Positions 5,012-6,961 of a stretch of DNA of 8,566 bases are shown here, piece by piece. The stretch is from the IMG/VR virus record IMGVR_UViG_2671180710_000015; one strand, written 5' to 3'. The notes under the pieces are model-generated. The model saw only the letters and a program-made list of their open reading frames with translations, made no database searches and was not told the origin of the DNA. Source of the stretch: a virus (lineage: Duplodnaviria > Heunggongvirae > Uroviricota > Caudoviricetes). Each line of letters starts with the position of its first letter. Within the stretch, counting starts at the first letter, position 1. Position numbers and translations under genes: made by a program.

Positions 5012-5239
5012 TTATTCTCCGGTGTGGGGCGCTTTATTATTTTCGATAATATCCATTGCCTTATCCAGTTCATCAATAACAGGCGATAGTAATGTCTGAA
5101 TGGCTGCAAACATTAATGACGAAGATTCTTCGCCAGATTCCGGCACTTCAATTAATTTGCCTAACAACGCATTCATTTCCTTTGCGCGGATTAATGCGTT
5201 TTCAGAATGAATAAGAACATCAAAGGGTATTTTATGCAT
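5012..5239 (-). CDS. Hypothetical 75-aa acidic helical protein in a markedly A+T-rich gene
   Basis: The ATG overlaps the stop of the upstream gene (ATGCATAA) with a GGGGTGAG SD-like sequence upstream. A hand count gives 13 Asp/Glu against 6 Lys/Arg. There is no family match by eye. Confidence 0.55.
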   Translation of the reverse strand: MHKIPFDVLIHSENALIRAKEMNALLGKLIEVPESGEESSSLMFAAIQTLLSPVIDELDKAMDIIENNKAPHTGE

Positions 5240-5429
5240 GACTCACCCCCTGGCGAATACGGGCGGCGAATACAGCAACACAACCGGACGGGCAACGGCT
5301 ACGCGCTTCGCGTTCCGTCCAGGCGGTTACGTGGATGATTTGAGATTCTCCGGCACTCAGTGCCAGAAAACGCCACACAAAGGCCGTTTGTGTGTGTGCT
5401 AGTCGTGGGGTATGATTTACGGCAACCAT
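5232..5429 (-). CDS. Icd-like (host cell division inhibitor-like) small protein, 65 aa; first gene of the leftward operon
   Basis: GAGAGG lies 7 nt upstream of the ATG at 5429. The pattern FVWRFLAL...IIHVTAWTEREARS....VAVFAARI recalls the Icd-like proteins annotated in P4-like elements. The call is from memory, not from a search. Confidence 0.5.
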   Translation of the reverse strand: MVAVNHTPRLAHTQTAFVWRFLALSAGESQIIHVTAWTEREARSRCPSGCVAVFAARIRQGVSHA

Positions 5430-5501
5430 AAATTTACCTCTCTATAGTGTTTGTGGTTAGACGCCCTGCATGTGTTCCAGCACTGTGGGGCGTTGTTTTT
5501 T
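5373..5501. repeat. Copy A of a duplicated leader module (5' end of the Icd-like gene, its SD, and a terminator-like hairpin)
   Basis: It shares ordered blocks with 6081-6240 on the plus strand. The blocks are CGTTTGTGTGTGT (5385-5397), CCAT (5426-5429), TTACCTC (5434-5440), TGGTTAGA (5454-5461), and a GCCC..GGGC stem with a T-run (5462-5501). It also contains the hairpin CACACAAA-ggccg-TTTGTGTG (5374-5394). Confidence 0.7.
5462..5501 (+). terminator. Plus-strand terminator-like hairpin antisense to the leader of the leftward operon
   Basis: CGCCCUGCA (5462-5470) pairs with UGUGGGGCG (5484-5492); two of these pairs are G-U. TTGTTTTTT follows. No upstream plus-strand promoter could be identified by eye. 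Confidence 0.4.
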
Positions 5502-5502
5502 G

Positions 5503-5547
5503 GTGCAAGTCACCTTGAAATCTAGGTTACTTTTAGGTGACTTGCAC
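5503..5547. promoter_or_regulatory. Perfect 13-bp inverted repeat (candidate operator) in the divergent control region
   Basis: GTGCAAGTCACCT (5503-5515) and AGGTGACTTGCAC (5535-5547) are separated by 19 bp. The arms bracket the -10 and overlap the spacer and -35 of the proposed leftward promoter. Confidence 0.6.
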
Positions 5548-5572
5548 TTCAAGTCTTTTTTTATTTTTTTTT
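5524..5572 (-). promoter_or_regulatory. Proposed leftward operon promoter (P-left) with an UP-like A-tract
   Basis: On the minus strand, TTGAAG (5552-5547), a 17-nt spacer and TAACCT (5529-5524). It is preceded by A9-T-A7 (the complement of the T7-A-T9 tract at 5556-5572). Confidence 0.4.
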
Positions 5573-5583
5573 CTCCGTATACT
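5556..5583 (+). promoter_or_regulatory. Proposed rightward promoter for the first RHH-like gene
   Basis: TATACT at 5578-5583 lies 30 nt upstream of the ATG at 5614. The -35 position falls in the T7-A-T9 tract, so there is no consensus -35. Confidence 0.3.
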
Positions 5584-5613
5584 GAACACCACCTAACAGT
5601 AAGGAGAACAGAG

Positions 5614-5793
5614 ATGCCAACAGGTACAACCAACAACAAGTCACAACAAAAAACTGCTAGAGTACCTCTAGACGTTTTAAGCGAAATGAATTTGGTAAAA
5701 GAAGAAAACGAAACAGACGCACAATTTATCGTTACTGCCATGCGCGGCGAAATCAAACGCCGCCAGCGTCGCAAGGCCAAAGAATCAGAATAA
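5614..5793 (+). CDS. Ribbon-helix-helix-like small DNA-binding protein, 59 aa (candidate island repressor)
   Basis: AAGGAG (5601-5606) lies 7 nt before the ATG. The pattern ARVPLDVLSEMNLVKEENETDAQFIVTAMRGEIKRRQ fits a beta-strand, helix, helix (Arc/CopG-like) layout. The gene is divergent from the replication operon. Confidence 0.6.
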   Translation: MPTGTTNNKSQQKTARVPLDVLSEMNLVKEENETDAQFIVTAMRGEIKRRQRRKAKESE

Positions 5794-5802
5794 TCACTAT
5801 CA

Positions 5803-5829
5803 GCGCCGTGGTGTGAGGTACTACGGCGC
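5803..5829 (+). other. 10-bp stem hairpin 10 nt downstream of the RHH gene stop
   Basis: GCGCCGTGGT (5803-5812) pairs with ACTACGGCGC (5820-5829), including one G-U pair. The weak U-rich tail is ATTGCTTT. It could be an attenuator or an mRNA stabiliser. Confidence 0.4.
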
Positions 5830-5850: not shown

Positions 5851-6078
5851 ATGACCAACAACACACTATCACCAATACAAGACACGCAAACGCAAGATGA
5901 TGAAATCATCCGGCAAAGGCAGTCAGAAGCCTGCGCCAGACTTGAGGAAGAACTAACCAGAACAAAAATACCACCACCAGCGCCGCGCTTAGTGCCACCA
6001 GAAAAATTTGCCCTTGAAGATTTTGTCGATAAATACCCACGGCGGCTTAAATCCGGCAAAAACCGACCGCCAGGATGA
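5851..6078 (+). CDS. Hypothetical 75-aa protein (weak call)
   Basis: The ORF is in the same frame as 5614-5793, separated only by one TAA and 19 sense codons. The SD is weak, rare codons are frequent and a Pro-rich centre (KIPPPAPRLVPPEK) is present. No family was recognised. Confidence 0.35.
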   Translation: MTNNTLSPIQDTQTQDDEIIRQRQSEACARLEEELTRTKIPPPAPRLVPPEKFALEDFVDKYPRRLKSGKNRPPG

Positions 6079-6080
6079 GT

Positions 6081-6240
6081 GCACAAAACCGAACTATGAA
6101 ACGGATTATTCCGTTTCCGGGGCGTTTGTGTGTGTATAAAGAGTAAGCTATGCTCTTTTATAGCCATAATCGTTACCTCAATTAATGGTTTGGTTAGAAG
6201 CCCGTTGGTGTTCATAGCGCCAGCGGGCTTTGCTTTTTGT
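6081..6240. repeat. Copy B of the duplicated leader module; on the plus strand it is a candidate sRNA / structured 3' UTR
   Basis: It carries the same ordered blocks as copy A: CGTTTGTGTGTGT (6123-6135), CCAT (6164-6167), TTACCTC (6173-6179) and TGGTTAGA (6191-6198), then a terminator. An extra perfect hairpin GAAACGGA-ttat-TCCGTTTC (6098-6117) is nested inside an outer CACAAAAC/GTTTGTG stem. Confidence 0.65.
6199..6240 (+). terminator. Rho-independent terminator, plus strand
   Basis: GCCCGUUGG (6200-6208) pairs with CCAGCGGGC (6220-6228), followed by UUUGCUUUUUGU. Confidence 0.6.
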
Positions 6241-6258
6241 GTTGATTGTGTGTAATAT
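6230..6258 (+). promoter_or_regulatory. Possible promoter of the second RHH-like gene
   Basis: TTGCTT (6230-6235), a 17-nt spacer and TAATAT (6253-6258). TGTAAT/ATTACA motifs lie at 6251-6256, 6277-6282 and 6288-6293; the last two flank the SD. Confidence 0.35.
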
Positions 6259-6297
6259 GTCACTACACATAAATACATTACATGAGGTGTAATTAAC

Positions 6298-6477
6298 ATG
6301 TCAATACACAAAAACGAAAGGCGTGGTAATCCTCCGTTCCAGTTCCGTTTAGATCCTGACTTACGGGAAAAGATGGAAAAGGCACAACAACATGACGGCG
6401 ATGATTCTCTTGCTGCCTGGATAAAGCGAATAATCCGCAAAGAATTACAGCAACGCGGCATAGAACCCAAAGGGTAA
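6298..6477 (+). CDS. Ribbon-helix-helix (Arc/CopG-like) small DNA-binding protein, 59 aa
   Basis: Hand-translated and below the track cut-off: MSIHKNERRGNPPFQFRLDPDLREKMEKAQQHDGDDSLAAWIKRIIRKELQQRGIEPKG. GAGGTG lies upstream of the ATG. It has the classic RHH layout of FQFRLDP strand, LREKMEKA helix and SLAAWIKRIIRKEL helix. Confidence 0.65.
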   Translation: MSIHKNERRGNPPFQFRLDPDLREKMEKAQQHDGDDSLAAWIKRIIRKELQQRGIEPKG

Positions 6478-6621: not shown

Positions 6622-6828
6622 TTACGCAGCCGTTCCGCGTGCTTCCTGCTCACGTTCTTTCATCCATGCGATTACGTCTTCCTCATACCATCCGCGACGG
6701 CGTAAACCAACGCGAAAACCCTGCGGAAATTCTCCGGCGTTGATCATGCTTTGAAGCGTGCTGTCTGCCTTGATGTGGATAAGTTTTTTTACTTCCTGGC
6801 GAAAGATGACTTTTTTGATTGCTTCCAT
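6622..6828 (-). CDS. alpA: AlpA-family transcriptional regulator / excisionase-like HTH protein, 68 aa
   Basis: Typical Phage_AlpA pattern: FRQEVKKLIHIKADSTLQSMINAGEFPQGFRVGLRRRGWYEEDVIAWM. AAGGT lies 8 nt upstream of the ATG. Confidence 0.85.
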   Translation of the reverse strand: MEAIKKVIFRQEVKKLIHIKADSTLQSMINAGEFPQGFRVGLRRRGWYEEDVIAWMKEREQEARGTAA

Positions 6829-6846: not shown

Positions 6847-6921
6847 TCCGGTGTATTCCGGTGACAAATACGGTAAATCATCGGATATGGGTAAAAACAG
6901 TTCCCACCGTTTTTAAACGGT
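6847..6921. promoter_or_regulatory. Repeat motifs in the alpA upstream region
   Basis: The direct repeat TCCGGTG occurs at 6847-6853 and 6857-6863, one helical turn apart. The palindrome ACCGTTT-TT-AAACGGT lies at 6906-6921. No convincing sigma70 hexamers were found by eye. Confidence 0.3.
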
Positions 6922-6961
6922 TAGAATCGTTTTTTATGTTGGTGATTTGAAAGGGATTTAT

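Follow-up and report, generated by a model that had tools for sequence, protein, structure and literature searches.

In the immI region of phage P22, the ribbon-helix-helix (RHH) repressors Arc and Mnt act at the divergent promoters Pant and Pmnt, together with the antisense RNA sar. The Omega repressor of plasmid pSM19035 is likewise an RHH dimer; the short unit that it recognizes is not palindromic and is repeated over promoters in direct or inverted orientation. Plasmid pMV158 pairs antisense RNA II with CopG, the product of the first gene of the operon that CopG represses. Phage-inducible chromosomal islands (PICIs) of Gram-positive bacteria have the master repressors Stl and Rpr, and Stl is inactivated by complexing with helper-phage proteins (PMC6092414). 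Gram-negative PICIs have AlpA as their master activator, acting on genes downstream of alpA, and its overexpression alone induces the island EcCICFT073; whether there is a global repressor was called “unclear,” and the contrast with the Gram-positive islands “a mystery” (PMC6092414). The later open-access papers that we consulted still give only AlpA as a regulator; some PICIs are reported with P4-type immunity RNAs and some Gram-negative PICIs with C4/IsrK-type RNAs (PMC10111431). In the open-access literature, we found no description of an RHH regulator in such islands, or of the operators presented here. We analyzed an 8,566-nucleotide stretch of viral DNA (IMG/VR record IMGVR_UViG_2671180710_000015; “the window” is this whole stretch), whose gene content marks it as a phage satellite from E. 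coli, of PICI or capsid-forming PICI type. We think it probable that a 59-amino-acid YlcI/YnfO-like protein encoded there binds two predicted operators, O1 and O2, and keeps the satellite replication operon off. The proposed switch is of a known kind, in a class of element where such a switch was not known.

The likeness to P22 immI lies in small RHH regulators (predicted here), in operators laid over back-to-back divergent promoters, and in an antisense RNA on the translation start of the controlled gene (a candidate here). However, the YlcI-like protein has no significant sequence similarity or Pfam membership to connect it with P22, which uses one 21-bp palindromic operator where the satellite has 11-bp units in either orientation, and which controls an antirepressor rather than a satellite replication and packaging module. 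Omega likewise uses a short unit repeated in either orientation over promoters, but in contiguous arrays of 7-bp heptads, whereas the 11-bp units here lie 22–36 bp apart. Unlike CopG, the regulator here is divergently encoded, and the candidate antisense RNA targets an Icd-like gene, not a replicase. The obvious functional analogue is Stl/Rpr, where the regulator is also divergent from the excision/replication operon of a phage-inducible island; the differences are that the regulator here is a predicted RHH protein of 59 aa, that no anti-repressor is known, and that induction is known to need AlpA. Control by RNA at the head of a leftward operon with an Icd-like first gene recalls the P4 CI RNA and the P1 c4-icd-ant immunity system (PMC10111431). 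In our locus, however, the RNA would come from the opposite strand, as a cis-antisense RNA, and is paired with a protein regulator; Rfam gave no match to C4, IsrK or CI-type immunity RNA (window at E ≤1; five relatives at gathering scores).

The first-pass annotation of this DNA had noted a 13-bp perfect inverted repeat around the leftward promoter, and this repeat is real. Its arms, GTGCAAGTCACCT (5503–5515) and AGGTGACTTGCAC (5535–5547), are complementary at 13 of 13 positions with 19 nt between them, and they make up the only perfect 13-nt inverted repeat with a gap of up to 40 nt in the window. Such a repeat occurred in 0 of 300 first-order Markov sequences matched to the window in length and composition, and the window holds no further copy of a repeat arm with up to three mismatches permitted. 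The unit that is kept in relatives is nevertheless not 13 but 11 bp long, covering 5503–5513 (O1) and 5537–5547 (O2), with centres 34 bp apart. Both sites read GTGACTTGCAC, O1 on the minus strand and O2 on the plus strand. The icd-like/replication operon has a predicted leftward promoter, PL (minus strand; −35 TTGAAG at 5548–5553, −10 TAACCT at 5524–5529, 17 nt from the −35), whose spacer is filled by O2; its transcript would start at about 5517, with O1 covering about +5 to +15. To the right, the YlcI-like gene has a predicted promoter of its own, the rightward PR (plus strand; −10 TATACT at 5578–5583, without a −35 match), with a start expected at about 5590. The arms had been described as enclosing the PL −10 and overlapping both its spacer and its −35. 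They do enclose the −10, and the right arm fills the spacer, but the −35 is abutted (5547/5548) rather than overlapped. Both promoter hexamers, and the T7-A-T9 tract at 5556–5572 (T7 5556–5562, A 5563, T9 5564–5572), lie where they had been placed, as can be read directly from the sequence.

Our comparison took in about 95 related islands, drawn from E. coli genomes, from 84 IMG/VR contigs retrieved by a pattern of two conserved blocks, and from contigs encoding more distant YlcI homologues; 79 loci are clear homologues. In all 79, sites of the form (G/C)TG-N5-CA(C/G) stand at the same places, with fixed flanks and a core that varies between islands and is constant within an island. O1 was found in 79/79 loci, always with the O2 core of the same element, and its orientation relative to O2 varies by lineage. 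In the window lineage and the AAATA lineage the two units are inverted; the AATCG and AACAC lineages, EcCICFT073 and a Proteus island have them as direct copies. Across lineages they are spaced 22 to 36 bp apart. As the units are direct in some lineages, an RNA hairpin or conserved RNA stem is excluded, and the units are better understood as protein sites usable in either orientation. Perfect inverted symmetry, which the first-pass annotation had described, is thus not what is kept: the two copies are direct in many relatives.

Most lineages carry a third copy, O3, fused to the rightward −10 (TATACTG-core-CAC) and with the same core as O1 and O2; placed over the −10/+1 of the regulator's own promoter, it implies autoregulation. 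At the corresponding position in the window (5582–5592, plus strand, CTGAACACCAC, over the −10/+1 of PR), the core is non-cognate, AACAC instead of ACTTG, and equals the site of the AACAC lineage. A cognate site at the regulator's own promoter is therefore missing from the window and found in most related lineages. A stretch of 20 nt here, GTATACTGAACACCACCTAA, is identical to AACAC-type islands, and the foreign core could be a recombination patch or drift. The earlier reading had mentioned neither the third site of the relatives nor the plus-strand hairpin left of the repeat.

The repeated sites overlap core promoter elements in a consistent manner: O2 always fills the PL spacer and abuts the −35, O1 spans −10 to about +15, lying at or after the −10/+1, and O3 in relatives covers the start of PR. 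Conservation also argues for the promoters themselves. In the PL −10, the first, second and last positions (T, A, T) are invariant in 63/63 distinct sequences, with the middle three free to vary, and these positions lay outside the search pattern. The PL −35 is invariant in alignment A1, and the constancy of the blocks CACTTCAAG and GTATACTGA across the IMG/VR set follows from how that set was built; in loci not selected on this block, the PL −35 reads TTGAAG, TTGACG or TTGATG (TTGAnn) and the PR −10 reads TATACT, TATAAT or CATAAT. An automated promoter scan lists neither PL nor PR, both scoring under its threshold, as TAACCT matches the consensus at 3/6 positions and PR has no −35.

The core of the site co-varies with the YlcI-like protein. 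When YlcI proteins are clustered at 80% identity, clusters and cores correspond one to one (adjusted mutual information 1.0). The same measure is 0.13 for the Icd-like gene, though it lies equally close on the other side, and 0.18 for AlpA; replicase types are shuffled relative to the cores. Differences between types of the YlcI family cluster in the six residues before a conserved proline, the predicted DNA-reading strand, and N7–S10, R16, P18 and helix B are nearly invariant. Eight such strand types pair with eight cores with 0 exceptions, cross-genus cases included: QKTARV, the window type, with ACTTG; QLNARF with AATCG; MTTVRI with AAATA; QLSVRL with AACAC; KLQARA with GGAATCC; KMSARV with GGCACCC; KLEARV with TCAGC; and ALKARV, the type of EcCICFT073, with TGGCC. 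This pairing of strand and site also holds in contigs from Proteus and Morganellaceae and in Hafnia-type and Cronobacter-type ones. In Proteus mirabilis, an island that shares the QKTARV strand has GTGACTTGCAC twice, as direct repeats 22 bp apart, and Morganellaceae and Hafnia-type islands with QLNARF have GTGAATCGCAC three times. Intergenic identity to the window is 61–65% for the two that were aligned (Proteus, 65%, and Cronobacter-type), and the arrangement differs.

The candidate binder is encoded at 5614–5793 on the plus strand, with AAGGAG at 5601–5606 preceding its start. It is likely to have the RHH fold, judging from structure prediction and profile alignment. Sequence searches place it only in the NCBIfam family YlcI/YnfO; it has no match in Pfam, its search against PDB sequences gave nothing meaningful, tblastn against 50,697 phage records found no match, and Foldseek found none for its model in the PDB. 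An AlphaFold2 model from a 41-sequence alignment has helices at residues 19–28 and 35–58, with a pLDDT (predicted local distance difference test) of about 90 or higher over residues 21–50, and shows the two helices and tight turn expected of an RHH domain of about 45 residues. Residues 8–14 form a low-confidence helix in this monomer model, where an N-terminal strand would be expected. A single-sequence AlphaFold2 model, which gave one long helix, was discarded. The turn between helices A and B (residues 32–35) fits the G-x-S/T/N pattern: most members of the family have G-E-S/T there, and the protein of the window has N-E-T. Using hhalign, with a verified Arc sequence, we obtained weak scores: a probability of 69% and an E-value of 4.3e-5 for Arc, and a probability of 17% for Mnt. 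The register puts residues 12–17 on the Arc strand, with Q12, T14 and R16 on Arc Q9, N11 and R13. These three Arc residues are its base contacts.

Collectively, these data are consistent with a repressor-type switch. When such a layout was first suggested for this DNA, it was drawn with a divergent RHH-like regulator, inverted operator symmetry and slippage in the T tract. The operator pair for a divergent RHH-like regulator has comparative support, from co-variation, promoter conservation and an RHH-like model; the symmetry and the slippage have dropped out. We propose that the predicted RHH dimer would read GTGACTTGCAC through its N-terminal strand, Q12-K-T-A-R16-V. In the quiescent island, YlcI-like dimers on O1 and O2 would bar RNA polymerase from PL and hence from the icd-like/replication/packaging operon, O2 by its position in the spacer beside the −35 and O1 by covering the first transcript bases. 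In most lineages, O3 would limit synthesis of the regulator itself. The A/T tract may serve PL as an UP element, and an antisense RNA ending at O1 probably blocks translation of leaky Icd-like message. AlpA could override the block by either of two speculative routes: AlpA-dependent transcription from alpA, convergent with the regulator gene, could run through that gene into the operon, or AlpA could antagonize the regulator directly.

A broader proposal is that YlcI/YnfO-like RHH proteins are the missing master repressors of Gram-negative PICIs and related P4-like satellites, with eight or more immunity specificities that are interchangeable, the 5-bp core of each being set by three to four strand residues, with helper-phage induction acting through AlpA to override them, and with the antisense RNA acting as a second lock on the Icd-like gene. 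We put this forward tentatively, and think it somewhat doubtful as a whole. Either way, for a class of island described as AlpA-activated, we can now name a candidate protein together with the exact positions of its sites, and a predicted code between strand residues and operator core. The predicted code could also explain immunity between co-resident satellites.

EcCICFT073, which serves as the model Gram-negative PICI, carries the module too, and protein, sites and code are thus open to direct testing in an existing experimental system. Helper-phage induction and transfer have been shown experimentally only for EcCICFT073 and EcCIEDL933. The EcCICFT073 island and the EDL933-type island have an architecture similar to that of the window. 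In EcCICFT073 (locus L108, 9654–9852, E. coli CFT073), the same module carries the site GTGTGGCCCAC twice, as direct repeats, and between the two perfect sites lies a near-consensus leftward promoter, TTGACG-18-TATAGT, which would need to be silenced in the quiescent island. The locus tags of its YlcI-like gene, C_RS30120, and of its Icd-like gene are out of series; both genes were presumably added on re-annotation. The EDL933-type capsid-forming island (locus L091, 4060–4282, E. coli O157:H7) has no YlcI. In its stead, an unannotated 57-aa Arc-like open reading frame (ORF; MSTPLEKRSPPYQMRLPEDF...QQRGIEPKG) occupies this position, oriented divergently from the Icd-like gene and preceded by two perfect GGTAATTACC palindromes with a spacing of 30 bp; on the other strand, RefSeq gives an “Icd-like pseudogene” here. 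This island argues that the architecture is general and the protein family interchangeable. Of 5,426 complete E. coli genomes, 771 contain DNA resembling the operator and regulator gene of the window.

Several observations weigh against repression by the YlcI-like protein as we propose it. EcCICFT073 carries the module and is inducible by AlpA overexpression alone, so that any repression must be overridable by AlpA. The PL −10 of the window is weak (3/6), and activation may be needed more than repression. The O3 of the window is non-cognate. Centre-to-centre spacings of 22, 23, 25, 34–36 and 45 bp keep no constant helical phase. Finally, the sites are only 30–110 bp from the regulator gene; linkage contributes to the association, and co-inheritance could look like co-evolution, an objection that is weakened, though not removed, by the comparison with the Icd-like gene and by the pairs seen across genera. 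The first two of these points would suit a YlcI-like protein that binds the sites and is no maintenance repressor, acting instead as a Cro/Arc-like turn-down after induction or as a toxin-antitoxin-style autoregulator of an Icd-like toxin operon, with quiescence set elsewhere (by lack of AlpA, by H-NS or by the antisense RNA). Arc of phage P22 is itself an RHH regulator of the lytic phase. We regard such a role as unlikely, since the near-consensus leftward promoter of EcCICFT073 requires silencing in the quiescent island, the regulator is transcribed divergently, from a promoter of its own, as maintenance repressors are, and Pfam, NCBIfam and PHROG searches found no toxin-like partner downstream.

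Binding of the repeats by AlpA, or by a helper-phage or host factor, in place of the YlcI-like protein seems to us improbable. AlpA is the master activator and acts downstream of alpA (PMC6092414), and the P. aeruginosa AlpA element also lies between a −35 and a −10 (PMC9371919). However, AlpA types are shuffled relative to the cores, one AlpA type occurring with both ACTTG and AATCG, and ACTTG occurring with at least four AlpA types; the AlpA-type-specific repeat AAACGGT/ACCGTTT is found only upstream of alpA and not near PL; and a host or helper factor would leave eight island-specific cores unexplained. The P. aeruginosa AlpA, with a Q-like fold, a C-terminal helix-turn-helix and functional residues up to position 142, is not comparable to the 68-aa protein of the window (PMC9371919). 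Antitermination of the Q or P. aeruginosa AlpA type was rejected, given that the window AlpA has 68 aa and is of the Phage_AlpA/excisionase type, and that the sites do not co-vary with AlpA. It is very improbable that the repeat acts as RNA, be it as a 13-bp hairpin and T-tract terminator in a plus-strand transcript or as a structure in the leftward leader. The 13-bp stem is perfect, and the scan lists a terminator-like hairpin at 5539–5555 followed by TTTTTTTATT, but no stem can form from the direct copies of the AATCG and AACAC lineages, EcCICFT073 and Proteus, and the 5539–5555 stem is lost in relatives; on these two grounds, an intrinsic terminator made of the repeat and T tract was set aside. 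Moreover, the predicted leftward transcript begins between the arms and would contain only one of them, and across lineages we see the opposite of compensatory changes that keep the arms complementary. Repeated 11-mers close to a replication operon might also be iterons or another replicase site, which we think scarcely credible: the AATCG core accompanies TOPRIM/DUF927 primases, a D5_N/DUF5906 primase and a gene annotated as DNA primase family protein, the ACTTG core accompanies both a RepA-type helicase (window) and a DUF5906 protein (Proteus island), and published PICI origins are downstream of the replicase gene (PMC6092414). We thus favour repression of PL by the YlcI-like protein over these alternatives.

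The Icd-like gene (5232–5429, minus strand; NCBIfam NF033153, 64.8 bits) is the first of the leftward operon, and its start lies under a candidate cis-antisense RNA of about 80 nt (5423–5502, plus strand) that covers its ribosome-binding site and start codon. The candidate has a 5′ hairpin at 5424–5458, a second hairpin at 5460–5494 and a U-rich tail, and abuts the left repeat arm. Its fold is predicted at −30.4 kcal/mol (z-score −4.9), and the first loop holds the anti-Shine-Dalgarno sequence. A predicted −10 for it at 5411–5416 reads TAnnnT in 63/63 sequences, despite varying amino acids on the opposite strand. The piece from 5449 to 5502 is the most widely conserved of the intergenic region, with matches in about 900 E. 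coli genomes, and its hairpin is rich in covariation. Among 53 distinct sequences, 99% of hairpin pair positions are canonical on the plus strand versus 85.5% on the minus strand, with 94 G.U pairs versus 1 A.C. This asymmetry indicates selection for the structure in RNA from the plus strand, which is antisense to the Icd-like leader. Several lineages have a poor U tail. The only near match in Rfam is SymR (RF01809), which scores 25.9 bits (E 0.16), below its gathering threshold of 61, and marks a likeness in shape and placement only. The conserved hairpin also appears to be a recombination boundary of the module. The Icd-like protein was considered as the regulator, as its PHROGs family is labelled “transcriptional repressor,” but was rejected for want of co-variation with the site core. 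Within the Icd-like coding region, on the sense strand, there is a further terminator-like hairpin, CACACAAACGGCCTTTGTGTG then GCGTTTTCTG (5374–5394, minus strand), which could attenuate the leftward operon.

Read on the minus strand, the T7-A-T9 tract is an A-rich run upstream of the PL −35; for PR, it makes up the −35/spacer region. If an UP element is defined as a transcription-stimulating A/T-rich block around −38 to −59, the tract fits in composition and position, and it is plausible as an UP element for PL. The first-pass annotation had also suggested that its homopolymer runs might slip and modulate the rightward promoter, and had proposed to look for length polymorphism. The stretch from the PL −35 to the PR −10 (5554–5576, between CACTTCAAG and GTATACTGA) is 23 nt long in 72/79 loci; some polymorphism does exist, with one locus of 22 and one of 24 nt among the 12 of the window lineage, the other 10 having 23 nt. 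The stretch is T-rich in all lineages, and its T runs are interrupted in most. Slippage thus finds little support, and a phase-variable homopolymer tract was discarded on account of this near-constant length and of the interrupted runs in other lineages. From its sequence, the tract behaves as a fixed-length A/T-rich spacer between back-to-back promoters.

Read from right to left, the window encodes an integrase, an AlpA-family protein, two small plus-strand YlcI/YnfO-like proteins and the leftward operon. After the Icd-like gene, this operon holds ORF75, DUF4222, a RepA-type helicase, SSB and PerC (by Pfam and the annotation of a related island, L001), and further includes a small terminase subunit and a capsid protein. 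Its integrase, AlpA and RepA helicase, together with SSB, PerC, a small terminase subunit and a capsid protein, give the window the gene content of a Gram-negative or capsid-forming PICI. L001, a 97%-identical island beside roxA/pepT in a Shiga toxin-producing E. coli (STEC) strain, has a full HK97-type head module. The YlcI-like gene is followed by a terminator-like hairpin (5803–5829, plus strand), and the same hairpin lies 3′ of the YlcI-like gene in EcCICFT073. Beyond gene and hairpin is a 75-aa ORF (5851–6078, plus strand) with no match in Pfam, NCBIfam or PHROGs; relatives hold unnamed small ORFs at this position.

A second, diverged copy of the whole module is present at 6140–6477. Its parts are a remnant Icd-like start (MAIKEHSLLFIHTQT...; minus strand, reading from about 6168), a hairpin of the same type at about 6190–6240, here with a good U tail, and different repeats, TGTAAT/ATTACA, at 6251–6292. 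Its RHH gene (6298–6477) matches the PHROG family “Arc-like repressor” (4e-6). Both RHH genes had been offered as candidate regulators of the repeat at PL; the first is the one tied to the sites, and the second has these different repeats of its own.

The AlpA-family gene (6622–6828, minus strand; 68 aa; Pfam PF05930, weak; PHROG excisionase/regulator) is upstream of and co-oriented with the leftward operon. Upstream of alpA, at 6900–6925, we find a palindrome, ACCGTTT-aa-AAACGGT. The palindrome and a further copy of AAAACGGT are absent near the leftward promoter and conserved in islands of the same AlpA type, and the palindrome is a candidate AlpA autoregulation site.

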